Below are positions 9,259 to 41,009 of a DNA stretch of 64,000 nt, in pieces (positions within the stretch are counted from its first letter, which is position 1; every line of letters starts with the position of its first letter). The DNA is taken from the IMG/VR virus record IMGVR_UViG_3300045988_125590, positions 1 through 64,000 of that record; one strand, given 5' to 3'. The translations under genes were made by a program, and so were the position numbers. The DNA comes from a virus. Under the pieces are notes generated by a model. That model saw nothing but the letters and a program-made list of their open reading frames with translations. It searched no databases and had not been told where the DNA came from.

Positions 9259-9282
9259 TATTACTAGTGCCAGCTTTAGAGG

Positions 9283-9375
9283 AGGGTGTGAGATTCGAAC
9301 TCACGGAACGCTCGTCACGTTCTCCGGTTTTCCAAGTAGTATATACTACTCCGACTATGTCTTAACCATGCGATT
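9283..9375 (-). ncRNA. tRNA-like element (T-arm gtgag-TTCGAAT-ctcac, long variable-arm-like hairpin, 3' acceptor) without identifiable 5' half
   Basis: gagattcgaactcac on the plus strand. 5' acceptor complement ggagggt not found nearby; a near match gggaggt lies ~200 nt upstream inside the conserved leader. Confidence 0.3.
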
Positions 9376-9384
9376 TCTCGTTTA

Positions 9385-9608
9385 GGTTGCAGGTGTATAG
9401 TCTGTACACATTTAAAAATAAAATAAATCTACACGCTTGTCGCTCCTTTGACACAACCATTCTATTCATCCTGGCATAGTAAAGTTAAAGTTTACTTTCA
9501 GGCACCTCCCGCCTTTATATGTCACCCATCGCTACCCCTTCAACCTCGATTTATTTATTTTATTTAGCACGGCGTTAATATACTTTATAGGGCGTATACT
9601 TTCACCGT
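9385..9608. repeat. Conserved leader element, copy A (shares ~23-bp palindromic core ggtgtatagtctGtacacattta and ~60 bp of flanking similarity with 18050-18150)
   Basis: Direct comparison with copy B. Both copies sit between a minus-strand gene end and a tRNA-like T-arm/acceptor element. Confidence 0.5.
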
Positions 9609-9872
9609 TTAGCCTGCTTCTACTTCCTGAATTTCTTCAGGAGCACTCGTACCCCAATCTAAATTAACTATATAAGGATTCCAATCTTCTGTAAGGGTTA
9701 ATGCCCCACTTACATTGATAAGACTACTAGGAATCTCATACATAGTTCCTTCTACAGTTACGATAAACACAACATCACAAGTCGTGTTGTCAAAGCGTCT
9801 TATTGTAGATTTGCCAGAAGCGCCTCCACAATTTTTAAGTTGGACTACATAGTAGGTATTATTTTTATTCAT
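9609..9872 (-). CDS. Hypothetical small protein
   Basis: 87-aa ORF. Confidence 0.35.
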   Translation of the reverse strand: MNKNNTYYVVQLKNCGGASGKSTIRRFDNTTCDVVFIVTVEGTMYEIPSSLINVSGALTLTEDWNPYIVNLDWGTSAPEEIQEVEAG

Positions 9873-10169
9873 ACCCTATGTAGTTTTAACCGACACTCGT
9901 AATAACTACCCATCTTTATCTACCACTAGATCATATTTCTATGTATCATTTAAAGGTAGCATAACAGGAATACAATTAGCTGTATAATAAGCTATTGCTC
10001 TTCCTAGTCCAACATTTCCCTAATGGGATTTGTAATTAGATGTCCAAGGATTCATAATTTAAATTTTAATTTTAATTTGGTCAAGACCGGTGCATTAAGC
10101 CAACTCTGCCAACCCTCCAAATAATAGGACTAAGAAAAGCATCGTGTCCTATAGATTACTCTATATGCC

Positions 10170-10454
10170 TTACTCATTCACCTTAACGCGCGTACTTGTT
10201 TCGTGTGTCGCTTCTTCCTGTCCTACCTTTAATATGTCCTGGTTCCACCAATCAGTTAATTCCTGAAAGGTGATACCAAATGTATCTTCAAATTTATCTT
10301 CTGGTACAGTTTCTATACCTATTTGTATAGCCCAATACCAACAAGCTTCAATTTCTTTTAATGGAATTGGTTCTTCACATAACCAGGTATCATCCATTAA
10401 GCAATCCAGAAACTCTCTATGTTCCTCCTTAAATTTATTAATTTTATCATTCAT
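10170..10454 (-). CDS. Hypothetical acidic small protein
   Basis: 94-aa ORF. Confidence 0.35.
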   Translation of the reverse strand: MNDKINKFKEEHREFLDCLMDDTWLCEEPIPLKEIEACWYWAIQIGIETVPEDKFEDTFGITFQELTDWWNQDILKVGQEEATHETSTRVKVNE

Positions 10455-10456
10455 AG

Positions 10457-10543
10457 CGGAGAGTAGCGGATTCGAACCTCTGGACCGATTACTCGATCAA
10501 CACCTTAGCAGGGTGCCACTTTAAACCACTCAGTCAACTCTCC
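10457..10543 (-). tRNA. tRNA-Ser (anticodon GCT), type II
   Basis: Acceptor ggagagt/actctcc perfect; anticodon stem gcacc/ggtgt; loop ctgctaa; long variable arm; T-loop ttcgaat. Confidence 0.7.
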
Positions 10544-10550
10544 TAGAGAA

Positions 10551-10784
10551 TTACTTCTCTTCACCTTTGAACACCTCAGCAGCTATAACTGCTGCTTTAA
10601 ATAGAGCCAGTACTTCATCGTTATGAAGCATTGCATTAAAAATCATATTCTGCAGACTTGCTCGTCCTTCTGAACCAATGCAAGCTGAGGAGTGTTCACC
10701 ATCGCTTACGATACATACCACACTCTTTACCTCTTCAAAGCTATTTATAGTCTTGAGGGCTTCCTTTTTAAAGTTTCTTTCCAT
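10551..10784 (-). CDS. Hypothetical small protein
   Basis: 77-aa ORF. Confidence 0.3.
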   Translation of the reverse strand: MERNFKKEALKTINSFEEVKSVVCIVSDGEHSSACIGSEGRASLQNMIFNAMLHNDEVLALFKAAVIAAEVFKGEEK

Positions 10785-10811
10785 ATTAAATATTTAATTA
10801 ATAATCTATTA

Positions 10812-10888
10812 GGGTCACATCTGGGAATCGAACCCATTCTTCAATGTTCACAGCATTGCGTGCTAACCGTTACACTAAATGGACCATT
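10812..10888 (-). tRNA. tRNA-His (anticodon GTG), acceptor register uncertain
   Basis: Anticodon stem caatg/cattg with loop ctgtgaa; T-loop ttcgatt. Acceptor pairing imperfect by eye. Confidence 0.45.
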
Positions 10889-10889
10889 C

Positions 10890-11213
10890 TCATAACACCT
10901 TCATATACAAGTTCTTTGGATAATTAGGAAAAACTGCTAATGTAACTGGACATAGCCAAATTTCCCCACTAAAGTTAAGAGTATTTACTCCATAAGTAGC
11001 CCCAAATTCATCCTCAGAAACTCTATTGAGGTGTATATAATCCTTTATAGGGTCTGTTGATACTTCTATGGAGATTCTAGTGTTTCCATTACAGAGGGAA
11101 TCTAGAAGTAAATCTGCACCTGCTACCATTTGCAGATCAGATACATCTCCTTCCCAAGGAATATCTACAAACCAACGTTCAGATAATTTAACGAAAGATA
11201 ATATTTTCTTCAT
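10890..11213 (-). CDS. Hypothetical protein
   Basis: 107-aa ORF. Confidence 0.35.
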   Translation of the reverse strand: MKKILSFVKLSERWFVDIPWEGDVSDLQMVAGADLLLDSLCNGNTRISIEVSTDPIKDYIHLNRVSEDEFGATYGVNTLNFSGEIWLCPVTLAVFPNYPKNLYMKVL

Positions 11214-11232
11214 TTACTATTACTTTAAGTTA

Positions 11233-11302
11233 GTAGATATAAGGGAATTGAACCCTTCCTCTCAACCGCACAGGCAGGCTCTCACCAGTGAGCTAATATC
11301 TA
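11233..11302 (-). pseudogene. tRNA-like with intact acceptor, D and T arms but truncated / non-pairing anticodon arm
   Basis: Acceptor tagatat/atatcta; D-stem gctc/gagc; T-arm aaggg-ttcaatt-ccctt. Only 20 nt lie between D and T arms and no 5-bp anticodon stem is possible. Confidence 0.4.
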
Positions 11303-11312
11303 ACCAAAATAG

Positions 11313-11383
11313 AGGGTAGTGAGGGAGTCGAACCCTCTTACACGGTTTTGCGGACCGTGACCTAACCGTTCGGACAACCACCC
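11313..11383 (-). tRNA. tRNA-Cys-like (anticodon GCA) with unusual C32-C33
   Basis: Acceptor gggtggt/actaccc (one G-U); anticodon stem acggt/accgt; loop ccgcaaa; T-arm gaggg-ttcgact-ccctc; irregular D-arm as in Cys tRNAs. Confidence 0.45.
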
Positions 11384-11582
11384 TTAAAACAGAATACATT
11401 TTAGAAATTAACCATGATAATTATCGATAAAATTGCTGATAGTATTCTTATTGTAACAAAATGGAAAAACAAAAACGGAATGCTACTAGAAATGTTCAAG
11501 ATTAAAAGTCTCGTATTATAGTCTAAGTTTGCTGTACGCATTCCTATAACAATCTTCTAAATTATACAATATTTAAGTGGAG

Positions 11583-11660
11583 ATGAGGGGAGTCGAACCC
11601 CTGTCTTACATATTTGCATCAAAGCATTCTTACAGCTTAGGTTTTAAAGACTATCCTTGT
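11583..11660 (-). ncRNA. tRNA-like 3' element (T-arm agggg-TTCGACT-cccct plus acceptor strand) without foldable 5' half
   Basis: gggagtcgaacccct on the plus strand. Upstream region does not supply a complementary 5' acceptor. Confidence 0.3.
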
Positions 11661-11946
11661 CTATTAGGGTTGACAGGATTGATATACTGCCAACTTCCAC
11701 CACTCTGTTCCTAAAGTATACAGAGAACTTATAGAATTGTTAATGGTGCACCTTTCTGTTCCTAAGCAAGTGCTGCTCGACTTATTAGGCAGCAGCCTGA
11801 TAAGCAGGAGTCATATTAATAACCCTAGCATTTATGGTTTTGTTGTCTTTCCAACTGTCTTTGCTGTGCTTCTTATCTCCTACGCAATCAAAACCAAACA
11901 TCCCCATAACAAGCAGTTTCGGGTCATGCTCAGGACTCTCTTTCAC

Positions 11947-12468
11947 TTATACCATTTCTTTCAATAGTCCAGTATAGTTTGGATGGCTAGCATATCCAAT
12001 TCGATTTAGAAAGGCATAATAACTGCCTCCATTATATCTATTAGATATACATTTCTTATAATCCTCTACACATTCTGTCCAATGGGAATACCGTCTATAA
12101 CGATTTCCCTTTTTAAGTCCAAAAATATTCTGATGAGTACGAACTAAGTTAGACTTAAAATTACCTGTTTCAAGCTTGGCTTGAGCAAGTACAATATTTG
12201 CGTGAGGTATATTGTTCTTAATAAGTTCAGCCTTCAAATTGGTTTCATTAAGAACTTTTGGTTTAGCAACTGGCTTTACCTGAGCGACTTTAACATTTTT
12301 GTCCTTAGATGTAACCTTTGCTGAATCCTTTACCATTTCAATACGGATAGTATTTTCAGATGGTCTAGGAGAACTTTTTGGCACTGAAATTATAGTAATT
12401 AAAGCACCAAGGATTAAACCTATCATCAGGTAAAATCCATTTTGATAAATCTGTTGTTTCATAATCAT
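11947..12468 (-). CDS. Membrane-anchored peptidoglycan hydrolase, glucosaminidase/FlgJ-like (GH73 family)
   Basis: N-terminal TM helix. Motif NIVLAQAKLETGNFKSNLVRTHQNIFGLK matches the LytD/FlgJ glucosaminidase signature (AQA.LE.G......NN.FGIK). Confidence 0.55.
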   Translation of the reverse strand: MIMKQQIYQNGFYLMIGLILGALITIISVPKSSPRPSENTIRIEMVKDSAKVTSKDKNVKVAQVKPVAKPKVLNETNLKAELIKNNIPHANIVLAQAKLETGNFKSNLVRTHQNIFGLKKGNRYRRYSHWTECVEDYKKCISNRYNGGSYYAFLNRIGYASHPNYTGLLKEMV

Positions 12469-12586
12469 AGTTTTTAATTAATAAATACTAATCTAAAACA
12501 GGAATCTATTCTTTTATAGCTGCTGCTTTTATAAGAATATATTTGCTGTTAGATTCCTTCTTAGCATGTCAAAAACGTAAATGGCG

Positions 12587-12674
12587 TCTAGGTGACAGGA
12601 CTCGAACCTGCATCCGCTTATTAAGCCTCCACCTGATCCCAAATCAGGGCTCTAGCCAATTAGAGTACACCTAG
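12587..12674 (-). tRNA. Type-II tRNA (Leu-like D-arm, long variable arm) with apparent anticodon TGG
   Basis: Acceptor ctaggtg/cacctag perfect; D-arm ctc-taattggcta-gag (Leu-like); anticodon stem cctga/tcagg; loop tttggga; ~20-nt variable arm; T-arm gcagg-ttcgagt-cctgt. Confidence 0.5.
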
Positions 12675-12783
12675 ATAAACAGAAGACTTATTTGTACTTA
12701 CTTGATCCCTAATCGAGTGTATTAAATATTTGCTGTTAGTCTTCTTATTTATTAACAATAAAAAACAAAAAAGTATCCAGTTG

Positions 12784-12831
12784 AGGTGCACGAGGATTCG
12801 AACCCCTACTTCCCACTGAGGAATGCACCTT
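12784..12831 (-). ncRNA. tRNA-like mini-helix (7-bp acceptor-like stem aggtgca/tgcacct enclosing a T-arm-like ggttcgaatcc core), ~48 nt
   Basis: Too short for a tRNA: no anticodon or D arm. Confidence 0.25.
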
Positions 12832-12901
12832 AAACAAAGAACTTAAAAAGAATCATAAAATACCATTAGCAACATTGCTGAAGTTCTCTACGATAGCTAG
12901 T

Positions 12902-14347
12902 TTACTGCACGTTATAGTTATTCAAACTATCGTCGAAGTAATTTTCAGCCATTGCAATGAACTGTTTAGTACGCTTGTTGTCTACATCTAGGCATTCCTT
13001 GAGTGCCTCAACAAGTCTCTTCTCAGGAGTTTGAGACATATCCTTCTTCCGAGAAAGCTTAACCTGATGCAGATAAGACTTAACAGAGTTAAGAATATAC
13101 TCTGCCTTTACAACACACTCATCAGTGAGTACCATCATAGATTTAACCTTCTCGATAATTTCTGCCATAAATGCAGGAGCGATATTGTTCTCTTCGATGA
13201 ACTTACAAACATCTGTAAGGTCGTCCTCAATCTGATAACAACCAATCTCGAAAGATTTACGAATAAACTCTTCTGCTGTAGCAGCATCCAGAGTACCCAT
13301 AGAGATGATAGTGCCAACTCGCTTACCTCTTAAGAAGGTAGGTTCAATGAGTTCAATATGATTAGTAGTGAAAAGGGTAATGACATTCATATCCTTAGTA
13401 TCACCACCATCCAATGTGTTAAGGATGTCCTGCATAGCAGAGTCACGATTGCCTCGTGTTACCTGATCAATATCCTCAACAAAGATTACAACACCATGTC
13501 CAGACTGATCAATGATCTTAGACATGCGAAGAGATTCTGCCAAGAGTTTTGGGTCCTTCAGATAAATGAACATCCAATTGTTCTTGACAGCTTCACGAGC
13601 AAGTTTGAAGGCAAGAAGAGTTTTACCAGTTCCATAGCCTCCTTCTAATAATGCTCCAAACTTCAACGGAATGCCTTTCTCAATACACTTTTCTGGATTG
13701 AGAATGCGAGCATTGATTGGACGAAGGGCATACTCAGTTTCCTTACTAATAACCATTAACTGGTCGTCAATGTTACGTAAGTCAAGAATTTCTGGATTGT
13801 TAATGTTAGAAATCTCCAGAGCCTGACCCTTATAAATCGAATTAGTCTTCAAATTCGTTTTAGTCTGCTCGATAATGTCATCCATTAAAGATGAAAAACG
13901 GAACTGGAGTCTTCCAGTAATTATCAGCTCATGTGTATCAGAATGATAATTAATGTTAATTGAGGAATCCTCTCCGAGACCATCAAGCTGAATATCTCCA
14001 TAAGGAGCCTTAACTCTAGTTCCGTCAGCAAGAGTAATGTCTACAGTTTGAACACTCTTTTCACCTGATGGACTGCCACTTTCCTTAGAAACAACAGATC
14101 CAAACACCTGAGAAATAGCCTGATTGAGCTGATAGATACCATCGTTGCGGAAACACTGAATGCGATAGTTGATTTTTGCCATCTTCTTAGATTGGGCAAT
14201 CTCGCTCTCAATGTAGTCAAGGCAATCAGCATAAGTTGTATCCTGTAACTGCATTACCTCTATGAACTTACCTTTCATAGCCTCCTCATAGTTGTTTACC
14301 TTCTGCTCAAGAGTAGAACTCTTGCTTTTTCTTGTAACTTGATTCAT
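12902..14347 (-). CDS. AAA-family ATPase (classic AAA clade)
   Basis: Walker A GGYGTGKT, Walker B VIFVEDID, sensor-1 TTN and downstream Arg in the C-terminal half. ~230-aa uncharacterised N-terminal domain. Confidence 0.7.
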   Translation of the reverse strand: MNQVTRKSKSSTLEQKVNNYEEAMKGKFIEVMQLQDTTYADCLDYIESEIAQSKKMAKINYRIQCFRNDGIYQLNQAISQVFGSVVSKESGSPSGEKSVQTVDITLADGTRVKAPYGDIQLDGLGEDSSININYHSDTHELIITGRLQFRFSSLMDDIIEQTKTNLKTNSIYKGQALEISNINNPEILDLRNIDDQLMVISKETEYALRPINARILNPEKCIEKGIPLKFGALLEGGYGTGKTLLAFKLAREAVKNNWMFIYLKDPKLLAESLRMSKIIDQSGHGVVIFVEDIDQVTRGNRDSAMQDILNTLDGGDTKDMNVITLFTTNHIELIEPTFLRGKRVGTIISMGTLDAATAEEFIRKSFEIGCYQIEDDLTDVCKFIEENNIAPAFMAEIIEKVKSMMVLTDECVVKAEYILNSVKSYLHQVKLSRKKDMSQTPEKRLVEALKECLDVDNKRTKQFIAMAENYFDDSLNNYNVQ

Positions 14348-14621
14348 CTGGTTTTAATTTTTTTTTTTTTAATTTAATAATTCTGCGCCTAATATTTAGG
14401 CAGTTTTCCATAGTAGTTGTTAAACATCCGAGATGGACAATTCCATTGTCCTTAGTGATTGTAAGATTCTTTTCTGGAATTTCTCCCTTGTCTTCCCTAT
14501 TTCTAATGATACGCTCTATTATAGGGAATTTAACAGCAGTATTCTTACAAAAAATCACATCCTTCTCAGAAATGTAAACAACCTCATTGCCGTTTATTTC
14601 ACCTACTTTGTGTTTAGGCAT
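14307..14621 (-). CDS. Hypothetical protein (start trimmed to the internal Met of MPKHKVGEING)
   Basis: ORF 14307..14705; upstream part overlaps the next ORF. Confidence 0.3.
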   Translation of the reverse strand: MPKHKVGEINGNEVVYISEKDVIFCKNTAVKFPIIERIIRNREDKGEIPEKNLTITKDNGIVHLGCLTTTMENCLNIRRRIIKLKKKKLKPDESSYKKKQEFYS

Positions 14622-14794
14622 ACAATTAAACCTACAATGATAAAAGTAATGATTAACAAGATTATCGGTCCATAGAATGGGAGAGTAACCCACCACCAAG
14701 ACCAATCAATTACGCCAACTAGCTTTAATACCACGAAGGCGACACCCAATAGTCCAAGAATACCTGGACCTTTGTAATTTACCTGCTTTTCCAT
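14603..14794 (-). CDS. Small membrane protein (start trimmed to MEKQVNYKG so as not to overlap tRNA-Thr)
   Basis: Two hydrophobic helices (GILGLLGVAFVVLKLVGV, GPIILLIITFIIVGLIV). Confidence 0.35.
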   Translation of the reverse strand: MEKQVNYKGPGILGLLGVAFVVLKLVGVIDWSWWWVTLPFYGPIILLIITFIIVGLIVCLNTK

Positions 14795-14817
14795 ATTAAT
14801 ACCTTTTAAAATGTTAG

Positions 14818-14890
14818 AGCCCTCTGCCGGACTCGAACCGACAACCTCCTGTTTACAAGACAGGCACTCTGCCATTAAAGTTAAGAGGGC
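14818..14890 (-). tRNA. tRNA-Thr (anticodon TGT)
   Basis: Acceptor gccctct/agagggc; anticodon stem cctgt/acagg; loop cttgtaa; T-arm gtcgg-ttcgagt-ccggc. Confidence 0.65.
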
Positions 14891-14956
14891 ATTTTCGGAG
14901 GGTTCATAGTTAGTTGAACCCTCCTATTCTTTGTGAAAAGAGTTAAATACCTATTC

Positions 14957-16738
14957 TCACGAATCAGTATGAACTGTATACTTTTTATTTTTACGCTTAG
15001 CTACACTAAGCTTCACAATTCTTACTCTGTTAAGTAACTCCTGATCCATTGCTGTCAAGAACAACTCTTCTGCATTTTTAGGAGCTTTGAACTCAGGTTT
15101 ATTTCCTCCTAAAATGAATGCTACAGCACTCGGGTCATAGCCAGACATATAGAAGAAATTAGGAGCATTCGCAAAGTCTTCAAACTTTACTTTGTTGTCA
15201 GCACCATACCATCCATTAGGAATATCCCAAAGGATAATCTTAAAGGAATTAACGTACTCCTTACTAAACCCTGCTTCACGAAGTCTCCTAATTGCAAGTT
15301 GGAAATTTGTAGATTTGTTAGTACCACATCTATCAAACTCCCCGTCACTTACGCAGAGGATTCCACTTGGGAAATCTCTTTCTTCAACTCCTTTCAATTT
15401 TAATCCTACAAAGAGATCTATTACAGACTGGAAATTGGTACTTCCGTAAGCCTCACAACGATCATTGATATACTTGTCAACTGGGGTTGCTCCATTCCAT
15501 CTAAGAAGTTTGCAGCTATTAGAGAACTCTGCAAATGTATTAGCAAAGTATCCTTCTAAGAACTCAGAGAAATACAATGCCATAGACTTGGCAATACAAG
15601 ATGAAGATACATTACACCCTCTAGCAGTTGATTCCATTGAGCATGAGGTATCTCGTACTACAAGTAGTGAAGACTTAGCATCCACATTCTCTTTGCCCGT
15701 CTTTACAAGTTGTGCAAATTGCGCATTGATTGTCTTTTCCTTGTAATCCTCTATATGTCGATAGTTTCCATCGAAAGGAGCAAACAGCTCAAACACATAT
15801 CCTGTAAACTTAGCTACAGGCTTAGAGGAAATCCAATCAATATACTTCTTGGTAAGATTGTGGTTTTCCAAGAAGTTAGAACCAACCAAGAGAGCTAAAG
15901 CTCTACCTGCAATGTGATCAAAGTTAAGTGAATCGTACAACTGCTGAGAAATAAGTTGTTGCCATTCATGGGCAATACCCTTAGACTTAATCTTTCGATA
16001 AGCTTTATAAGCAGATTCCTTCTCCAATTTAGGAGAGAATTTTCTAGCCAACCATCTACCTATAAGAGTATCTGCTTGAGACTCAAGCGTTGTACAGTTC
16101 TTATTGGTTCTAATAGTTGGTAGGTACTTACGTACCAGGTGGGTTGTATCAGGATTGTTAAGTCCTGCTAACAAAGTCAGATATAGGAAATTCCAATCTA
16201 ACTTTCTCTCTTTCCAACCGTGATATTGTAAGTCTAAAGAGAGCATTTGGATGACATCCTTCCATGAGCCTGCTGCAATGAAAAGAGGAAGATTTACGTT
16301 AAATGTTGCAGGTTGATTAATCGCCAACCACAGCATTCTCATAATACCTTCATTCCTTAAGCCTTGTCCACGCTGAACCTCTAGTTCTTCACTCTTGTTT
16401 ATAGTGACAATTTTAGACTTACGTGTGATGAGTCTGAAATAGAGTGCAAGTTTTACACAGAGAGTAGGATTTGAACTCCATAGAGTTTGCATATCCTTTG
16501 CCACCTCCTCATAAGAGCGAGGCTCTTTGAAATATGAAGCAGCAGCAAAGTTATCAACAAAATCATTTCCAGTTGTGGAATACTTCTTTGCTCCATTGCC
16601 TGACTCAGTTTCAGAAGACACTTCCGATGCTTGCTCTACGAACTGATTCTCGGCAGGTTTAATGTCGAGAAGTGAATTTACCTTCTTTTGAAATTCCATA
16701 CTTTTTACATGATTATTAAAAATTTTTATAACTTCCAT
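14957..16738 (-). CDS. vWA-domain protein (MIDAS motif D-T-S-C-S-M); speculatively Ro60/TROVE-like
   Basis: LLVVRDTSCSMEST is a DxSxS MIDAS motif at the start of a C-terminal vWA-like region. ~350-aa mostly alpha-helical N-terminal region. Sits next to the AAA ATPase. Confidence 0.5.
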   Translation of the reverse strand: MEVIKIFNNHVKSMEFQKKVNSLLDIKPAENQFVEQASEVSSETESGNGAKKYSTTGNDFVDNFAAASYFKEPRSYEEVAKDMQTLWSSNPTLCVKLALYFRLITRKSKIVTINKSEELEVQRGQGLRNEGIMRMLWLAINQPATFNVNLPLFIAAGSWKDVIQMLSLDLQYHGWKERKLDWNFLYLTLLAGLNNPDTTHLVRKYLPTIRTNKNCTTLESQADTLIGRWLARKFSPKLEKESAYKAYRKIKSKGIAHEWQQLISQQLYDSLNFDHIAGRALALLVGSNFLENHNLTKKYIDWISSKPVAKFTGYVFELFAPFDGNYRHIEDYKEKTINAQFAQLVKTGKENVDAKSSLLVVRDTSCSMESTARGCNVSSSCIAKSMALYFSEFLEGYFANTFAEFSNSCKLLRWNGATPVDKYINDRCEAYGSTNFQSVIDLFVGLKLKGVEERDFPSGILCVSDGEFDRCGTNKSTNFQLAIRRLREAGFSKEYVNSFKIILWDIPNGWYGADNKVKFEDFANAPNFFYMSGYDPSAVAFILGGNKPEFKAPKNAEELFLTAMDQELLNRVRIVKLSVAKRKNKKYTVHTDS

Positions 16739-17063
16739 CAGAGAATATTACTCTTCTTAAGGTTTGCCTTAAAGGTCTATAGTAATTCGGTAATGGATAA
16801 TAATTAATTATTTTGGATGTGCCAGATTCTATATAGGTTTTTACTACAGCCTCCTTGTAACGATCAGTATCATACTTAGAAGGGAAATCGTATTCAATTG
16901 TGAATACTATACAAACTATATCTTTCCATGTATTATTTAATACTTTAGTTTTTATATAAGGGGTATTATTAGAATCATAACATCCTTTTGCTCTCACTAC
17001 CTTTTGAGAGACTGCACTAGTACTTATGAGTACAAGTAGCAAAGCACATAAAATTTTCTTCAT
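16716..17063 (-). CDS. Secreted small protein (signal peptide MKKILCALLLVLISTSAVSQ); start trimmed to avoid tRNA-Leu overlap
   Basis: ORF 16716..17213; the upstream part overlaps the tRNA at 17081-17161. Confidence 0.4.
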   Translation of the reverse strand: MKKILCALLLVLISTSAVSQKVVRAKGCYDSNNTPYIKTKVLNNTWKDIVCIVFTIEYDFPSKYDTDRYKEAVVKTYIESGTSKIINYYPLPNYYRPLRQTLRRVIFSDGSYKNF

Positions 17064-17080
17064 ATTAGTTACTTTTAAGG

Positions 17081-17161
17081 TCGGAGTAGTGGGACTCGAA
17101 CCCACACGCATTACTGCATATGCTCCTAAGGCATACGTGTCTACCATTCCACCATACTCCG
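17081..17161 (-). tRNA. tRNA-Leu (anticodon TAG), type II
   Basis: Acceptor cggagta/tactccg perfect; anticodon stem tatgc/gcata; loop cttagga; variable arm present; T-arm gtggg-ttcgagt-cccac. Confidence 0.7.
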
Positions 17162-17365
17162 TGGTGCCTTTTCCTTTGCTATTATAATAGCTAACCCTAG
17201 AGAAAAGATGCATAAAAGACTAAGTTTCTATAGATAAAGTATTACTTGTAAGCCTCGTCTAATTCCTTAGACCAAGCTTGATAAACACTAATGAATGGTT
17301 GCTGCATCATATTATGCTTTTTGGCATAATCGAGCAAATACCTTAGTTCCTGTAAATCCATAATG

Positions 17366-17911
17366 TTATATTTTAATAGTATTGATAGCGTCTTCTATTA
17401 CATTTGATGCTTTCAGTAAAGCCTTGTTGCTGCTCAGTAGCTTTCCCTTAAGGTCATTTAGTTCTGCCTTTATAGCATTGCATTGTTTCTTTAGACTTTT
17501 GTTCTCCTCATATATAGAGTCGGCAACCTCGAGATCTGACCTTAGCTTAGCATTGTTTAGCTCCGCAGAAGCTTTTTGAAGATTCTTGTTAGTCTTTTTG
17601 AGAGACTTTAGTAAGCTCTTTATATGCCCTGCAAATAAATCCCTTATACTAAAGTAACTTTTTAAAAATCCTACAATATCTTCCTTATAAAAGCAAGAAG
17701 TTATTCTGAAGTCCTTGTCAGTAAAATAATAGCAGCCGTTGGAAAGCTTGACTATTTCAAAATCAACGAACTCATGTTCGCTGTAATGATCAGAAAACCT
17801 AATTGTAGTAGATCCTTTTTGATAATATCTAGAACTATTAGTAGAAGCTTTCTTATAAGAATCAGTCATTGAAACCAACAACTTGTGAATTGATTTATCT
17901 CTATAATCCAT
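17366..17911 (-). CDS. Hypothetical protein with C-terminal coiled coil
   Basis: 181-aa ORF; Lys/Leu/Asn-rich heptad-like C-terminal half. Confidence 0.4.
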   Translation of the reverse strand: MDYRDKSIHKLLVSMTDSYKKASTNSSRYYQKGSTTIRFSDHYSEHEFVDFEIVKLSNGCYYFTDKDFRITSCFYKEDIVGFLKSYFSIRDLFAGHIKSLLKSLKKTNKNLQKASAELNNAKLRSDLEVADSIYEENKSLKKQCNAIKAELNDLKGKLLSSNKALLKASNVIEDAINTIKI

Positions 17912-17929
17912 TTCTTTTCGTTTTTATGT

Positions 17930-18012
17930 TAATGTTTGTAGCTCGAACAAGAATCGAACTTGCACGCCCATTACTGGGCAACAGATTTTCAATGAGCTTA
18001 CTCTCATTTGGA
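17930..18012 (-). ncRNA. tRNA-like element: T-arm (gcaag-TTCGATT-cttgt), acceptor-like stem and a cccagtaatggg hairpin, with no D or anticodon arm
   Basis: caagaatcgaacttg on the plus strand. Immediately followed (minus sense, upstream) by conserved leader copy B. Confidence 0.3.
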
Positions 18013-18049
18013 CTATGTCTTCTCCATGCATTTAAATATTTAAATGTTT

Positions 18050-18150
18050 AGGAGGCTGGTGTATAGTCTCTACACATTTATGTATTAATTACAATTTAGC
18101 TCGGCGTTATTATCATTTAAAGGCTGATACCTTCGCCGAATTAGCCAGCA
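18050..18150. repeat. Conserved leader element, copy B (ggtgtatagtctCtacacattta core plus flanks similar to 9385-9608)
   Basis: Alignment with copy A shows the ends gcaggctaaacggtgaaagtatacgcc...aacgccgtgctaaat vs gctggctaattcggcgaaggtatcagcc...aacgccgagctaaat, with paired substitutions. Confidence 0.5.
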
Positions 18151-18151
18151 T

Positions 18152-18649
18152 TCACGCAAGAGATTTCTCATCTTGGTGCTCATTACCTTTAGATCTGTTT
18201 CGAGAGCGAAAATTATCAGTCCGACTATGACAATTAGGACAAAGAATTTGTAAATTTTCTATCCTATTATCAGTGCTATCCCCATTTATGTGATGTAATT
18301 CACATACTAGAGGTTTACCAAGCCATTCTGTAATTCCACATATTTCACACTTATTTTCTTTCAAACCTAATTTATACACCAAATTTTTAGCATTAGAACT
18401 ATTTAGTGAGCTATGTTCACATAGTTTTGCTAAATATTTACCTTTATAAACTGGGTTACTAGGATTTTTATTCCAAGCTTTTCCAGTAAAGTGTGAATAA
18501 TCTACTCCAAATTCATCCATCTTTTTTCTTAGTGTTTTAGGATTTGAACCTTCTGGAGCTAATCCTAAACGACGACATAACTCTGCAAAGGAATAACAAC
18601 CCTTCACATTTTCTTCTAATAATTCTTTTGTATATTTTATCCTTTTCAT
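18152..18649 (-). CDS. HNH homing-endonuclease-like protein
   Basis: CEICG...ELHHINGDSTDNRIENLQILCPNCH is a classic HNH / zinc-ribbon motif. Located within the tRNA array. Confidence 0.75.
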   Translation of the reverse strand: MKRIKYTKELLEENVKGCYSFAELCRRLGLAPEGSNPKTLRKKMDEFGVDYSHFTGKAWNKNPSNPVYKGKYLAKLCEHSSLNSSNAKNLVYKLGLKENKCEICGITEWLGKPLVCELHHINGDSTDNRIENLQILCPNCHSRTDNFRSRNRSKGNEHQDEKSLA

Positions 18650-18750
18650 GGGATAATAATATACAGAAATTTTCGTCTACCAAGAAATAGTAAGTTAATT
18701 TTCCTTAAAGTCTGTCGGGTCTACCAATTCCCCCATCGAGCCATCCTTTC

Positions 18751-18993
18751 TTAAAGAAGTTTGTAGGAAGTTTCTATAAATTTATCAATTAAGTCATCTC
18801 TGTAGAAACAATCTACACCATAATCAAATTGCACTTTTCTTGCAATTTTATACTTAGACTCAATATAATTAAATACCTTCTGTCCTTTTCTCCAACTATT
18901 TGGGAGGTCTTTAATATTTTTAAAAATATCTCCTCTAAATTCTTCGTATGTCATAATTATTATTTTCAAAATAGTCCTGTACGATTTGAGCAT
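18751..18993 (-). CDS. Hypothetical small protein
   Basis: 80-aa ORF. Confidence 0.3.
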   Translation of the reverse strand: MLKSYRTILKIIIMTYEEFRGDIFKNIKDLPNSWRKGQKVFNYIESKYKIARKVQFDYGVDCFYRDDLIDKFIETSYKLL

Positions 18994-19406: not shown

Positions 19407-19479
19407 TCGGGTGTGTGGGAGTCGAACCCACTGTTTTCTGCTTATGAGACAGACGTGTAAGCCGTTTCACTCACCCCGG
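19407..19479 (-). tRNA. tRNA with anticodon CAT (Met or Ile2 type), acceptor with mismatches
   Basis: Anticodon stem tctgt/gcaga with loop ctcataa; T-arm gtggg-ttcgact-cccac; acceptor has 2 mismatches by eye. Confidence 0.45.
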
Positions 19480-19805: not shown

Positions 19806-19894
19806 TGGTGTTCCCTATGGGACTCGAACCCATGACCCTCGGATTAAAAGTCCGATGCTCTCAAGCCTTACGGAACCAACTGAGCTAAGGGAAC
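19806..19894 (-). tRNA. tRNA-Lys (anticodon TTT) with enlarged (~21-nt) D-loop, CCA encoded
   Basis: Acceptor gttccct/agggaac; anticodon stem tcgga/tccga with loop cttttaa; T-arm atggg-ttcgagt-cccat; D region gctc-agttggttccgtaaggcttga-gagc. Confidence 0.55.
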
Positions 19895-28732: not shown

Positions 28733-28807
28733 TGGTCGCCCCATTCAGATTCGAACTGAAACGTGCGGTTTTAGAGACCGCTGTGCTAACCATTACACCA
28801 TAGGGCA
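28733..28807 (-). tRNA. Amber-suppressor tRNA (anticodon CTA), tRNA-Gln-like body, CCA encoded
   Basis: Acceptor tgcccta/tggggcg (U1-G72); D gtgt-aatggtta-gcac nearly identical to tRNA-Gln(TTG) at 21540-21610; anticodon stem gcggt/accgc with loop ctctaaa (C34 U35 A36 reads UAG); T-arm ttcag-ttcgaat-ctgaa; 3' ACCA. Confidence 0.7.
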
Positions 28808-37791: not shown

Positions 37792-38412
37792 TCTTTATAA
37801 GTGTAGAAATATGAATTAATGAATTATGGTTTAGGATATATTTGTTTATAATAATCAACTCAACAGAGTTGATCTCAATACACATGAAATATTATTGGTT
37901 AAGGAATTTAAAGCCCTCCTTGAACCAAGCAGAAATAAATGCAAAGAAGACCCAAGTGGATTAATGGGTCTTCGAGCATTTAGAGAATTTACCTATATAT
38001 GGCTTGCTATATGTTGGAAATCTGTATATAGCGAGTATGATGAATAGGTAAGACATTAGGAATCCCTAAAGGATGCAAACCTAACGGAAGAAGAATTTAA
38101 TAACCCGGAATTTAGAGCAGCATGTAGGAAATTTAGACAAATACAAGAATCTAATCTTTCTATTAAAATGCTACATGCTGCACAGGAAACTGTTAATAAG
38201 TTCATAGAATACTTTAATTCAGTGGATCCTTTAGAGAGAGATGAGTAGACTGGAAAGCCCGTGTATAAAGTTAAAGACATTATGGCTGAATTGAGTTCTT
38301 TAGGAAAAGTTCATGATGAGTTAGTCGATTTGGAAGGAAGAGTCAAGAAAGAATTAACTGAACAATCTTCAGTACGTGGTGGAGCTATAGACGGATACCA
38401 ACCTAACTTTTA

Positions 38413-40773
38413 ACAACTATGGAAGAAATTAAAAGGAAGAGAGGGAGACCTAAGAAGGTTAAACTTCCAGAGGAAATAAAAACCCTAGTACAGGAAGTCT
38501 AGTAGGAAAAGAAGACTGAACCTACTAAAATATAGGAACCTATACCAGAATCAATAAAATCTTCAGAATGGGATGTTCCAAAGGAAGAGTATATAAAATT
38601 CTTTGATAAAAGACTTTCTTATGAGCTAACAGGTTACAAGCCAATTACAGAAACTTAGGGATTGGACTTTGATCCAAGTTGGTTTACGGTGGCAAGAGAT
38701 ACCTATATAAGAACTGGAAAATATTGCAGCTATCGAATATATAGCAAACCTTATAATGACTTCTGGCATGAGGAATATCGTAGGTGTCGTGAAGGATATA
38801 CAGTAAATGGATATACACTAACTGGTCCGAATTACTATTATCTTAATTATTATCAACTTCCTAATATTGATGTAGAAATAGCTGGTAGTGGACGTAGTTA
38901 GATATTTCCTAAATTTTTGGTATTTCAATATGAGTTCTTCCACTACTTTGAAATATGTAGAAGGGAGAAGAAGGATGTATGTCTTATGAAGTCCCGTGGT
39001 ATTGGTTTCTCTGAAATAAATGCAGCTATTTGCGCCTGTATTTATAATTGCTTTAGAAACAGTAAGTGTATGATTACTACAAGTTTGTCTAATTACTTAG
39101 AGAAATCTCTTGATAAGGTATGGAATGCACTTAGTTTTGCAAATGAACATACTTAGGGAGGTCTTGCTAAACTTAGATAGGCTAAGGATACATAGTTCTT
39201 AAAAAGAGCTTCTACTTTAGTAAAAGACTCAAACGGTATACCATCTGAGACAGGTTGGATGTCTTAGATTGAAGGTGTTGTAGCGGAAACTGATGCTAAA
39301 ATTAGAGGTGACCGTATTGATTTACTAGTATATGAAGAAGCCGGTTCTAACTCCGTTTTAAGAAAATCTTACATTAAAGGAAAGGCTTTGATATACATTG
39401 GAGGTACAAAGTTTGGAATTAGGCTGGCTGGAGGAACTGGTGGTGATAAAGGTGCTGCCTTACAAGGACTTAGAGATATATACTATGATCCAAATGGATT
39501 TGATGTACTTCCATTTTATCATAACTATACAGAAGGAGGTGAGTGGGTATATACAGGATATTTCATTCCATCTTATATAGGAGCCATTACAGAATATGGA
39601 ACTGATATTAATGGAGTAAGAAGATAGTTACTTGATAAGAGAGGTTACTGTTTATGGAAAAACTATAAAGAATAGTTGGATTTAGATAGGGCTAATCTAT
39701 CCTCAAACCCTAGAGCCTTGATTGACCACTCTGCTGAGTACTGTTATACAGCTGAAGAAGCTTTTGCTTTGGAGGGTGATAACAAATTCAATAAGGTAAA
39801 TATTGCTGAGCAACTTACAAATATCAGGGCTCTAAAGAAATGTCCTCCAATCGAAAGAGGTTATATTGAATATAAATTCAAAGAAGGGGCTCATATTCAG
39901 TAGAATATAGATGGCTTTAAGTGGATTCCAAATTAGAATAGTAAACTTTAGATACTGGAACATCCAATTTGGACTTTGCCTCCAGTTGAGGATGAAAATG
40001 GAAAAGTAATCTGGAAGCCACCTACTGAAAAGGTTAGAAACCTGTATGTAATAGGAATAGATGGTATCGATATTGGTGCAGCGCAAACATCAGAAGCTAC
40101 TAAGGATCCATCTGATTTCTGTCTTGTTGTTTACAAGAGAGCTTATGGTATAGAAGAACCAAAATTCGTAGCACTTTATAAGGATAGACCTAACGATGTT
40201 AGAGAGTGCTATAAGATAGCTATTAAACTAGCATAGTATTATAATGCTACAATAAATATAGAAGCAACCAGATAGAGTATAATTCCATATGCACGAGAAA
40301 GGAAACTTCTTAATCTCTTTATGAAAAGACCTAGAGCTACACTTGCAGACTCTGCTAGAAATACAAATAAGCAATATGGAACTCCTGCAACTCCTGCTAT
40401 TATAGACCATCAGACTGACTTAATAGCAGACTATATAACTGACTATTGTCATCTTATATGGTTTGATGAAATGCTTGATGAATTTAATAGGTATACTGAT
40501 GAAAATAAGAAGAAATTTGATATTGTTGCAGCGGTGGCAATGGCTCTATTAGCAGACGAAGAATTGCAAGGAATTGTACCTAAAGTTGTAGAAGAGGTTA
40601 AAGATACCTGGTAGGATATAGGATTTTATACAGACGAGTATGGAAGAAGACGCTATGGAACACTTCCAAAAAATACTCCATAGATACGGTTTAATAATAA
40701 TTTTGGATAGTTATATGACGACTTAGGACCTAGAACAAGTAATACAAGACTATATTCTGGATATTTATCATAA
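38413..40773 (+). CDS. terL: Terminase large subunit (TerL), TAG-recoded; true start uncertain (first canonical in-frame start TTG at 38662)
   Basis: One frame open from 38413 to TAA 40771 with ~9 in-frame TAGs. Motifs: KSRGIGFSE (P-loop-like), DLLVYEEAGS (Walker B), VIGIDGIDIGAAQTSEATKDPSDFCLVVY and IIDHQTDL (RNaseH-like nuclease). Confidence 0.6.
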
Positions 40774-41009
40774 GAAGTATATAGGAAAAATAGTCATTGA
40801 GAAATTAAACCCAATAGGATATTATATTAAGTTGGGTATGGATCATCCGTATTAGCCTATAATTATATATGCAGAGTTAGAGGATGATAAGTTTCTTAAG
40901 TTTCTCAAGTAGGAACTTAAAGATAGGCGCTTTAACCTAGTATATTATGGTAAACTATAGTTAACTTACCCATATGATTGTAATCCAATAAATACAGCAT
41001 GTAGTTGTC

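Follow-up and report, generated by a model that had tools for sequence, protein, structure and literature searches.

Two tRNA genes of a TAG-recoded phage, very probably interrupted after anticodon position 34 by related group I introns with homing-endonuclease genes

The 64-kb stretch of viral DNA analysed here (hereafter the window) belongs to a tailed, TAG-recoded phage of ~171 kb. Two minus-strand elements, each consisting of a T-arm and a 3' acceptor strand and singled out in the original prediction as tRNA-like halves, are indeed present at 9332..9280 and 17989..17939, and are the 3' halves of phage tRNA-Ser(UGA) and tRNA-Leu(UAA) genes, respectively. The ranges initially assigned to them (9283-9375 and 17930-18012) also take in the P9 hairpin of an intron. 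Although both were thought to lack a foldable 5' half, the corresponding 5' exons were found 750 nt (locus A, serine) and 718 nt (locus B, leucine) upstream, where they complete the acceptor, D and anticodon stems perfectly at both loci; they had been overlooked because endonuclease ORFs occupy the P1 loop. In-silico joining of the intact exons yielded canonical class-II cloverleaves, assigned by ARAGORN as tRNA-Leu(taa) and tRNA-Ser(tga). Standard tRNA finders gave no full tRNA at either locus, and it was only in intron-aware mode that ARAGORN recovered both genes from genomic DNA, rather than as complete canonical tRNAs with ordinary spacers. On the evidence set out below, related mobile group I introns have very probably split both minus-strand genes inside the anticodon, at the 34/35 junction.

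At locus B, the 5' exon of tRNA-Leu(UAA) (GGCUCGAUGGGGGAAUUGGUAGACCCGACAGACUU; 18742..18708, minus strand as are all features of both loci), located by ARAGORN on the joined exons, ends with U34, and the 3' exon (17989..17939; ARAGORN) extends from A35 to the discriminator A. Between them lies a 718-nt intron (18707..17990), delimited by Rfam model RF00028, the family covariance model R1 and the splice rule, which runs from the nucleotide after U34 to omega-G at 17990. It comprises a 165-aa ORF situated in the P1 loop (18152..18649), a segment at 18153..18181 that holds the guide GAG (18181..18179) followed by P2 (18178..18153), as placed by family alignments and relatives, and the ribozyme core from P3 to P9 with omega-G (17990..18149), defined by Rfam, covariation and R1. 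Core helices are P3 (GCUGG/CCAGC), P4 (UCGGCG/CGCCGA), P7 (GACUAU/AUAGUC), P8 (CUCC/GGAG) and P9 (AUGAG/CUCAU). The U(-1)/omega-G rule leaves one splice solution, producing a 7-nt anticodon loop (sequence reading, and ARAGORN on the joined exons). The guide GAG pairs with exon C32-U33-U34, and sequence reading revealed neither a convincing extension of P1 into the intron nor a P10, such that P1 comprises 3 bp (CUU/GAG) only and efficient splicing may need pairing within the anticodon stem of the exon, or a protein. The P1-P2 layout is the same as that of the ORF-less relatives L013 and L024, in which the P1-P2-P3 arrangement is directly visible.

At locus A, the 5' exon of tRNA-Ser(UGA) (GGAGGGUUGGCAGAGUUGGCUUAAUGCACCGGUCUU; 10118..10083), identified by ARAGORN and from the syntenic gene of relatives, also has U34 as its last base, while the 3' exon (9332..9280; ARAGORN) extends from G35 to the discriminator U. 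The intervening intron (10082..9333, omega-G at 9333) was delimited by model R1 and by ARAGORN, which in intron mode returned tRNA-Ser(tga) with an intron of 750 nt; in an ARAGORN shift test of this copy and ~20 relatives, the U(-1)/omega-G rule again gave a unique splice site and a 7-nt loop. Within the intron are a 148-aa ORF with four in-frame TAG codons (9609..10055) and, from sequence reading, a segment at 9621..9653 containing the guide-bearing 3' strand of P1 (9653..9646) and P2 (9645..9621; CCUGAA-GAAA-UUCAGG). The guide GGU(A)CGAG, of which GAG itself is 9648..9646, pairs with CUU-GACC across the 5' exon-intron boundary in a P1 of 7 bp including one bulge. The extra ~150 nt previously attributed to this copy correspond to a real insertion, but one of 118 nt (9547..9430) which alignment and a split R1 match place in the loop of P6; its fold stability is at the level of shuffled sequence (z = -0.42).

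An Rfam scan, one of the checks proposed with the original prediction, matched copy B to RF00028 (Intron_gpI) at 17990-18200 with 57.7 bits, where the gathering score is 50. Copy A reached 17.3 bits, below that score, because of its P6 insertion. The R1 model, constructed from 26 relatives with the window sequences left out, matched both intron loci and nothing else in the 64-kb window: copy B at 18011-18181 (142.5 bits, E 1.8e-31), and copy A as adjacent matches at 9511-9648 (33.2 bits, E 3.9e-6) and 9353-9499 (58.3 bits, E 6e-12), split at the P6 insertion. The supposed conserved leader with a palindromic core proves to be the ribozyme core, P3-P8. A related element does precede each tRNA half, as predicted, in that the shared motif ggtgtatagtct[G/C]tacac (on the minus strand, GUGUA[C/G]AGACUAUACACC) occurs at exactly two sites in the window, 9392-9409 and 18058-18075; with up to three mismatches allowed, 0.06 occurrences are expected by chance, and two or more matches arose in 0 of 100 shuffles. 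Its palindrome, GUGUA...UACAC, exists in the sequence, but as a hairpin is without covariation support because it is invariant across the family, and in the group I fold the GACUAU inside it pairs instead with a downstream AUAGUC to form P7.

The paired substitutions noted between the flanks of the two copies were correctly read as the signature of an RNA helix. The stretches compared, ggtgaaagtatacgcc and ggcgaaggtatcagcc, represent P4-J4/5-P5, and both P4 (ACGGUG/CGCCGU in copy A, UCGGCG/CGCCGA in copy B) and P5 (UAUAC/GUAUA and UAUCA/UGAUA) differ by paired changes. RNAalifold applied to 13 family members recovered P2, P3, P4, P6 and P8, with changes on both sides in 19 of 31 pairs. An anchor-based test found P3, P4 and P8 fully paired in both window copies (5/5, 6/6 and 4/4), and mean pairing was higher with a sequence's own partner strand than with a swapped one (P3, 4.8 vs 3.7; P4, 5.7 vs 4.3; P8, 4.0 vs 2.95), these three helices differing between copies A and B by compensatory changes. 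P7 is present but invariant, and is therefore uninformative on covariation. The guide follows the exon: in family alignments A2 and A3 it is invariably GAG wherever the exon ends in CUU, and is replaced by GCAG(C) in relatives hosted by tRNA-Asn, whose exon terminates in (G)CUGU.

As originally stated, no ORF explains the conservation of the core itself, but endonuclease ORFs lie directly upstream, each overlapping the guide and P2 with its 3' end. The ORF of intron B is homing-endonuclease-like, matching the Pfam HNH family (PF01844; 24.2 bits, cut-off 21.4) and PHROG phrog_10822 (HNH endonuclease; E 4.5e-44); the guide and P2 share sequence with its final ~10 codons. The ORF of intron A was assigned to the PD-(D/E)XK class from Pfam, PDB and homologues. 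It matches PDDEXK_5 (PF11645; 44.1 bits, cut-off 26.1, E 2.7e-11) across a span that includes all four TAG sites. Sequence at the 3' end of this ORF is shared with the guide, with P2 and with the 5' strand of P3. At both loci, translation and folding could consequently be in competition through overlap of the ORF with the guide and P2. The best PDB match of the intron A ORF was 2OST (E 0.004), the structure of I-Ssp6803I, over the catalytic block PLxD..YDLV....LL+V.VK, with Ser in the (E/Q)xK motif where 2OST has Gln. Homologues in L029 and L036 carry Gln at three of the four TAG positions, and the ORF is intact if, and only if, these codons are read as Gln. An amber-suppressor tRNA with anticodon CUA is encoded at 28733..28807 on the minus strand (ARAGORN; Rfam tRNA, 57.6 bits), and is presumably needed to translate this ORF. 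Between 24 and 64 kb, the number of ORFs reaching 200 aa increases from 7 to 22 once TAG is treated as a sense codon, the terminase and portal being among them. The block holding the intron A ORF otherwise uses the standard code, and among stop-to-stop frames of 200 aa or longer this ORF is the sole one found there with TAG codons.

Comparison with related phages revealed presence/absence polymorphism at both sites. No intron occupies the tRNA-Ser(UGA) site of L076, L078 or L080, which have near-identical flanks (60/60 identity upstream in L076), and in relatives with an uninterrupted syntenic gene the flanking proteins are 86-92% identical. The joined exons of locus A are identical to the uninterrupted syntenic gene of L076 and L078 at 87 of 90 positions, while L077 and L079 lack a tRNA-Ser(UGA) gene altogether. 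The syntenic tRNA-Leu(UAA) gene is uninterrupted in L073, and introns other than that of the window were found in it in L074 (597 nt) and L075 (524 nt). Of 38 viral contigs in IMG/VR with the core, ~30 have it inside a split tRNA gene, in each case with the cut after position 34. Most of the 44 contigs of bacterial or MAG origin likewise have a tRNA gene split by this core, and the genes concerned are mostly tRNA-Leu(UAA). ORF-less relatives of ~200-240 nt were identified in L013, L024 and bacterial MAGs.

From these features we infer how the introns would act. In the precursor, exon C32-U33-U34 would pair with the guide GAG as P1, with a U-G wobble marking the point of cleavage. An exogenous guanosine, docked in P7, would attack after U34, and the freed 3'-OH of U34 would then attack after omega-G (17990 in B, 9333 in A), ligating the exons and so yielding mature tRNAs with the anticodon loops CUUAAAA and CUUGAAA. 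This two-step route is standard group I chemistry. The predicted targets of the endonucleases are alleles of the same tRNA gene that lack the intron, carried by co-infecting relatives, and repair after cleavage would spread the intron; the intron A enzyme would be made only if the phage's amber-suppressor tRNA reads the four TAGs as Gln.

Several alternatives to functional mobile introns were weighed. Of the three explanations offered with the original prediction, intron-containing, group-I-like tRNA genes are borne out by the 5' exons, the endonuclease ORFs and the RF00028 match at copy B. Stand-alone tRNA mimics of the Y RNA/YrlA type, and tRNA halves behind a promoter or processing leader, might seem consistent with the failure of standard tRNA finders and with a nearby ORF for a DUF2828/DUF7788 'RNA-binding protein' (14957..16738). 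Rfam, however, gave no Y RNA or YrlA match in the whole window at E <= 0.01, the halves join through perfect stems into ordinary tRNAs, and relatives hold the same genes uninterrupted at the same genomic position. Furthermore, the putative leader is internal to the gene, matches a group I covariance model and displays RNA-helix covariation. Both ideas are effectively refuted, and we give them almost no credence. A more substantial concern is that the introns are real but that one or both have decayed, leaving tRNA pseudogenes and selfish passengers which no longer splice efficiently. Such decay could be suggested by the 3-bp P1 read for copy B, by the unstructured 118-nt P6 insertion and low Rfam score of copy A, and by rapid turnover at both sites in relatives, including loss of the tRNA-Ser(UGA) gene from L077 and L079. 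Against this, pairing is perfect or nearly so in P3, P4, P5, the P6 stem, P7, P8 and P9 of either copy, the exons of each locus join into a faultless cloverleaf, each endonuclease ORF is intact, and the tRNA finder detected no second tRNA-Leu(UAA) or tRNA-Ser(UGA) gene elsewhere in the 64-kb window. The Anabaena tRNA-Leu intron is also reported to have a 3-bp exon-guide pairing supported by the anticodon stem, which again counts against decay, and we regard this alternative as quite improbable.

A final alternative is that the insertions are not ribozymes, but protein-spliced (bulge-helix-bulge) introns or akin to those of the Lak megaphages, whose tRNA introns were described as 'enigmatic', unprecedented in phage and unclassified (Devoto et al. 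2019, PMC6784885). Similarity to Lak phages is seen at a few tRNA genes of the window, the Lak introns are themselves unexplained, and in both cases tRNA genes of TAG-recoded gut phages are interrupted by introns whose presence varies between related genomes. Lak introns, however, measure ~80-115 nt, have 'no hit in rfam', contain no ORF and are inserted after position 37, i.e. at 37/38 (PMC6784885), whereas those of the window measure 718 and 750 nt, match RF00028 and the family model, carry endonuclease genes and interrupt the tRNA at 34/35, following the U(-1)/omega-G rule. We thus consider a Lak-type or protein-spliced origin extremely unlikely, and classifiable group I ribozymes with endonuclease genes remain our reading of both loci.

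A group I intron bearing a homing endonuclease is a familiar mobile element, and the mechanism is not new. Our literature search found no published example of such an intron in a phage tRNA gene. A 2014 review of bacterial group I introns placed all phage introns then known in protein-coding genes, despite the many tRNA genes of phages. The introns of T4 (td, nrdB, sunY), crAss-like and Jug phages are, like those described here, phage-borne, endonuclease-carrying and polymorphic among relatives, but interrupt protein genes rather than tRNA genes. HNH and PDDEXK_5 are the common types of intron endonuclease in Jug phages, and recoded stop codons have been noted in an intron endonuclease of Agate phages.

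Closer parallels in tRNA genes come from bacteria. The Anabaena tRNA-Leu intron (Xu et al. 1990; Kuhsel et al. 1990; Zaug et al. 1993; all as cited in PMC3984707) occupies the same host gene as locus B. The same order of a short P1 (CUU/GAG-type), P2, P3, P4-P6, P7, P8, P9 and omega-G is found in both, with P10 obvious in neither, while intron B differs in its phage genome and in the HNH ORF of its P1 loop; the likeness described here is one of architecture. The insertion point, U34/A35, is presumably also the same. Locus A is better compared to the group I intron of Synechocystis tRNA-fMet, which encodes the PD-(D/E)XK endonuclease I-Ssp6803I (Bonocora and Shub 2001, as cited in PMC3984707). 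Both are anticodon-loop group I introns with a small PD-(D/E)XK endonuclease, but locus A is in tRNA-Ser(UGA) rather than tRNA-fMet, resides in a phage genome and has four TAGs that need suppression, and the similarity of its ORF to 2OST is weak (E 0.004), with Ser replacing Gln in QxK. The tRNA-Ile intron of Azoarcus and other bacterial tRNA introns of subgroup IC3 (Reinhold-Hurek and Shub 1992, as cited in PMC4090602) likewise combine a compact core with an anticodon-loop insertion. Host tRNAs differ, and the window copies bear ORFs and peripheral insertions. The Azoarcus core is probably near-identical in the conserved stretches AAUUCGGCGAA, GUGUAGAGACUA, CCUAA...AUGG and GAAG.CAUAGUCC, and resemblance to the Azoarcus and Anabaena introns suggests a putative IC3-like subgroup for both window introns.

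Together, these loci fill a gap left by the 2014 review and the Lak study, namely classifiable, self-splicing-type introns with homing endonucleases in phage tRNA genes. Since standard tRNA finders miss such split genes, tRNA repertoires, codon-usage arguments and inferences of 'missing' tRNAs are biased for large recoded gut phages. The intron A ORF further offers a natural test case of stop-codon recoding, and could reveal if recoding sets the time at which a selfish gene is expressed. It is unlikely, but worth considering, that the phage puts the introns of its tRNA genes to use rather than bearing them as mere selfish passengers. Located as they are in the anticodon loop, the introns would then make splicing a condition for the supply of both tRNA-Leu(UAA) and tRNA-Ser(UGA), precursors would resist host anticodon nucleases, and endonucleases that cut the tRNA genes of co-infecting relatives would amount to interference competition, one of them being gated by amber suppression and so made only late in infection. 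The intron-less tRNA-Ser genes of L076 and L078 carry a C33 variant in the anticodon loop, which under such use would represent a resistance allele.

Both tRNA-like half elements reported in the original prediction are present as described, with the motif and arms confirmed in the sequence: the 3' halves at locus B (17989..17939, minus) and locus A (9332..9280, minus) each comprise the variable and T arms together with a 3' acceptor strand. Neither ARAGORN with default settings nor the Rfam tRNA model returned a gene at these loci; at least 20 other tRNAs were found, in a minus-strand array. Reading further upstream, we found the corresponding 5' exons, GGCUCGAUGGGGGAAUUGGUAGACCCGACAGACUU at 18742..18708 (minus) for locus B and GGAGGGUUGGCAGAGUUGGCUUAAUGCACCGGUCUU at 10118..10083 (minus) for locus A. 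Once joined, the exons form canonical class-II cloverleaves, called by ARAGORN as an 87-nt tRNA-Leu(UAA) at locus B and a 90-nt tRNA-Ser(UGA) at locus A, bearing out the earlier suggestion of intron-containing tRNAs; intron-mode ARAGORN also recovers both split genes from the genomic DNA. Splice sites were fixed by the rule that the 5' exon ends in U (U(-1)) and the intron in G (omega-G), which gave one solution per locus: intron B (18707..17990, minus; 718 nt) lies between U34 and A35, and intron A (10082..9333, minus; 750 nt), for which an ARAGORN-based shift test was used, between U34 and G35. The locus B assignment was read from the sequence together with the ARAGORN tRNA-Leu(UAA) call on the joined exons; a tRNA-Phe(gaa), called by ARAGORN in a larger context, was rejected, as it violates the U(-1)/omega-G rule and misfits the long variable arm. 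The predicted spliced junctions join CGACAGACUU to AAAAUCUGUUG and CACCGGUCUU to GAAAACCGGAG, and CCA is not encoded in either split gene.

The intervening sequences at loci A and B are group I introns. The window contains exactly two occurrences of the core motif GUGUA[C/G]AGACUAUACACC (9392-9409 and 18058-18075), compared to a chance expectation of 0.06 matches with up to three mismatches allowed. The Rfam Intron_gpI model matched copy B at 17990-18200 with 57.7 bits (gathering score 50) and copy A with 17.3 bits, the low score of the latter being due to a 118-nt insertion (9547..9430) that splits P6; upon folding, this insertion gave no sign of a structured domain. Through the core motif we gathered relatives from 38 IMG/VR viral contigs and 44 bacterial genome or MAG contigs, and 26 non-window sequences were aligned (alignment A3) to build a covariance model (R1) with which the window was searched. 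Only two places were identified, namely copy B at 18011-18181 (142.5 bits, E = 1.8e-31) and copy A at 9353-9499 (58.3 bits) and 9511-9648 (33.2 bits), corresponding to the halves flanking its insertion. Rfam also gives a below-threshold LOOT RNA match (17966-18054, minus; 31.6 bits, gathering score 46.4) overlapping P8-P9 of intron B, probably as a by-product of hairpins in that intron.

RNAalifold, applied to 13 family members including both window copies, recovered P2, P3, P4, P6 and P8, with both sides changed and pairing kept in 19 of the 31 predicted pairs. In an anchor-based test that is independent of gap placement, all pairs of P3 (5/5), P4 (6/6) and P8 (4/4) are formed in both window copies, and own-partner pairing exceeded swapped-partner pairing. 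Copies A and B respectively possess GCAGG/CCUGC and GCUGG/CCAGC at P3, ACGGUG/CGCCGU and UCGGCG/CGCCGA at P4, and AACC/GGUU and CUCC/GGAG at P8; P7 (GACUAU/AUAGUC), identified by direct inspection of the sequence, is likewise present, without variation. The paired substitutions previously noticed between the copies were found to correspond to the P4 and P5 helices. The palindromic core represents J6/7 and the 5' strand of P7, continuing into the 3' strand of P3. A hairpin is drawn here by RNAalifold, yet every column is invariant, leaving the hairpin without support over P7. A MAFFT pairwise alignment of the two cores misaligned the upstream half because of the copy A insertion, and family alignments were used instead.

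Among relatives with ORF-less introns, L013 (209 nt) and L024 (230 nt) possess an exon end, CUU, which together with the first intron bases pairs with a guide ending in GAG; P2 comes immediately after the guide, and then a short joiner, P3 and 'CUAA'. The same GAG-P2-P3 order is found in the window at 18181..18145 (copy B) and 9648..9613 (copy A). Since the 5' strand of P1 lies ~0.5 kb upstream of the guide, the intron ORFs occupy the P1 loop, and the 3' ends of both overlap the guide and P2, as well as P3 in copy A. The GAG guide shows no variation wherever the exon ends in CUU, and relatives hosted by tRNA-Asn(GUU) combine the exon end (G)CUGU with the guide GCAG(C). This covariation of exon and guide supports both P1 and the splice-site assignment. 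For copy A, a P1 of 7 bp with one bulge is possible (CUU-GACC with GGU(A)CGAG, the hyphen marking the splice site); for copy B, no pairs were found beyond the three exon pairs, which represents the main structural caveat. The P1 proposed by Rfam for copy B (18200-18175) falls inside the HNH ORF and includes many non-canonical pairs, and the 5' exon at 18742..18708 was preferred. We also observed a near-duplicate of the 5' splice-site region on the minus strand (18716-18703, ACAGACUUUAAGG, versus 18197-18185, ACAGAUCUAAAGG), the second copy of which lies just ahead of the guide, at the end of the HNH ORF, and was used by Rfam as P1. The wrong P1 probably arose from this near-duplicate, which may be a scar of ORF insertion. 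In a family member located in tRNA-Leu(CAA) (L022 and L025), the last exon base is C and not U (GGACUC-...G-AAAAUCC, hyphens marking the splice sites), which would make the cleavage-site pair C-G, where a U-G wobble is usual.

The product of the intron B ORF is an HNH protein of 165 aa (Pfam HNH, 24.2 bits, cut-off 21.4; PHROG 'HNH endonuclease', E = 4.5e-44). The ORF of intron A (10055..9609) comprises 148 codons, four of which are in-frame TAGs; when these are translated as Gln, the product matches Pfam PDDEXK_5 (44.1 bits, cut-off 26.1) over a span including all four TAGs, and at three of the four TAG positions Gln codons are found in homologous ORFs from the tRNA-Ser(UGA) introns of relatives L029 and L036. 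The best match of the intron A product to a solved structure is 2OST (E = 0.004, over the PLxD..YDLV....LL+V.VK block), which we take to be I-Ssp6803I, the endonuclease encoded in the Synechocystis tRNA-fMet intron. Whereas the HNH ORF of the window lies in the P1 loop, the HNH ORFs of nine relatives (L002, L015, L017, L022, L023, L025, L027, L028 and L037) end in the P6 region, directly 5' to the P7 core, which indicates that endonuclease genes entered this intron family more than once, independently and at different loops. When TAG is taken as sense, the count of stop-to-stop ORFs in 24-64 kb that reach 200 aa rises from 7 (2,092 aa) to 22 (9,270 aa). The terminase large subunit (38407-40773, plus; 19 TAGs), the portal (40992-43187, plus; 26 TAGs) and a tail protein are among those restored, and a tRNA with the anticodon CUA was called at 28733-28807 (minus). 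TAG is plainly a sense codon in the plus-strand structural/late block (24000-64000). Among frames of at least 200 aa in 0-24 kb, a cutoff above the 148-codon frame of intron A, TAG readthrough brought no ORF gain, and on these frames the tRNA/early block (1-24000, minus) is in the standard code, apart from the four TAGs of the intron A endonuclease.

The HNH protein maps to one metagenomic scaffold of 171,322 bp, and searches with flanking proteins, through which true empty sites were obtained, identified five relatives of 165-175 kb with 86-92% amino-acid identity. The locus A site is uninterrupted in L076, L078 and L080, in which tRNA-Ser(UGA) is identical to the joined exons at 87/90, 87/90 and 84/90 positions, respectively, with the upstream flank of L076 identical at 60/60; L077 and L079 are without a tRNA-Ser(UGA) gene at this position. 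At the locus B site, the tRNA-Leu(UAA) of L073 is uninterrupted and differs in its anticodon stem, and L074 and L075 possess apparently ORF-less introns (597 and 524 nt, not scanned for ORFs) with another P3 again (UCUCC/GGAGA), the window having the 718-nt HNH version. Mobile introns produce just such a pattern, with close relatives filled, empty or differently filled at a single exact site. Exact matches to the spliced junctions in uninterrupted tRNA genes of viral contigs (24 Leu and 9 Ser) were rejected as empty sites; these genes match in the anticodon arm only, with ~50-65% ungapped identity. The tRNA-Ser(UGA) genes of L076 and L078 (3330-3419 in each) carry C at position 33, which is nearly always U, and have the loop CCUGAAA. 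The C33 base would weaken pairing with the GAG guide, might alter the endonuclease target, and could represent a resistance allele.

From standard group I chemistry, we infer that the precursor would fold with CUU paired to GAG, placing a U-G wobble at the cleavage site, where guanosine would attack after U34. The 3'-OH of U34 would then attack after omega-G (17990 or 9333), and exon ligation would yield the loops CUUAAAA (B) and CUUGAAA (A), with CCA addition needed after splicing. The endonucleases would be expected to cut intron-less alleles in co-infecting relatives, and the PD-(D/E)XK enzyme could be made only when an amber suppressor is active. Such dependence was earlier proposed as a timing device for a TGA-recoded intron endonuclease of Agate phages.

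The mechanism is ordinary and the type of element well understood. The cyanobacterial and plastid tRNA-Leu(UAA) intron resides in the same gene as locus B, presumably at the same insertion point, and the Synechocystis tRNA-fMet intron with I-Ssp6803I shares its endonuclease family with intron A. We also take the core strings of the Azoarcus tRNA-Ile IC3 intron to be very similar to those of the window copies; a possible IC3 assignment is a lead only. Unlike these closest systems, the host context here is a phage genome, which appears to be unreported. A 2014 review placed all phage introns then known in protein-coding genes, despite the many phage tRNA genes; papers on crAss-like and Jug phages describe many group I introns, in protein genes; and Devoto et al. 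2019 (PMC6784885) called the tRNA introns of Lak phages unprecedented, these being 80-115 nt, ORF-less and with 'no hit in rfam'. No publication describing a group I intron in tRNA-Ser or in any phage tRNA gene came up in a literature search of incomplete coverage, and a BLAST search of annotated phages gave matches to tRNA exons and HNH genes only, with no annotated homologue of either intron. The interest of these introns lies in filling a gap among known phage introns, in a putative TAG-gated endonuclease, and in the consequences for annotation, as standard annotation misses these split phage tRNA genes.

Across the 38 viral contigs with the core, intron-mode ARAGORN identified a split tRNA around it in ~30, all cut after position 34; tRNA-Leu(UAA) predominates, and some are tRNA-Ser(UGA) or other tRNA-Leu isoacceptors. 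Bacterial genomes and MAGs have the core mostly in tRNA-Leu(UAA), within ORF-less introns of 200-240 nt, and also in tRNA-Asn(GUU), in CPR and other lineages. This distribution places the window introns within a broad bacterial family of tRNA group I introns. One contig of an 'Acholeplasmatales MAG' (L089, CAAGJD010000133.1) has the size (123,552 bp) and 230-nt tRNA-Leu intron of viral contig L024; at least this 'MAG' contig is really a phage contig, and some 'bacterial' family matches are thus phage contigs binned into MAGs.

Additional features were identified around the two loci. A 593-aa ORF (14957-16738, minus) within the tRNA array, adjoined by a 481-aa AAA ATPase ORF (12902-14347, minus), matches DUF7788/DUF2828 and PHROG phrog_850 'RNA-binding protein', and may be Ro/TROVE-like; no Y RNA-type Rfam matches were found in the whole window. 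An abiF RNA motif (RF03085; 18975-19012, minus; 50.1 bits, gathering score 37) lies upstream of the tRNA-Leu 5' exon, at a distance of ~230 nt, and overlaps the start of an 80-aa ORF (18751..18993). Between the tRNA block and the structural genes there is a RAGATH-1 hammerhead ribozyme (RF03152; 26980-27083, minus; 74 bits, gathering score 56.3). A phage-encoded tmRNA (11575-11905, minus; Rfam RF00023, 63.1 bits) is absent from the ARAGORN calls. The 89-nt tRNA-Pro(UGG) at 12586-12674 (minus), with a ~20-nt unpaired variable region, may hold a small insertion, the syntenic gene being 74-90 nt in relatives. Finally, the tRNA at 19809-19894 (minus; 86 nt, 66.9 bits) in Rfam was called by ARAGORN as a 71-nt tRNA-Lys with an odd D arm (19806-19876), and a tRNA at 19407-19479 (minus) was called by Rfam only.
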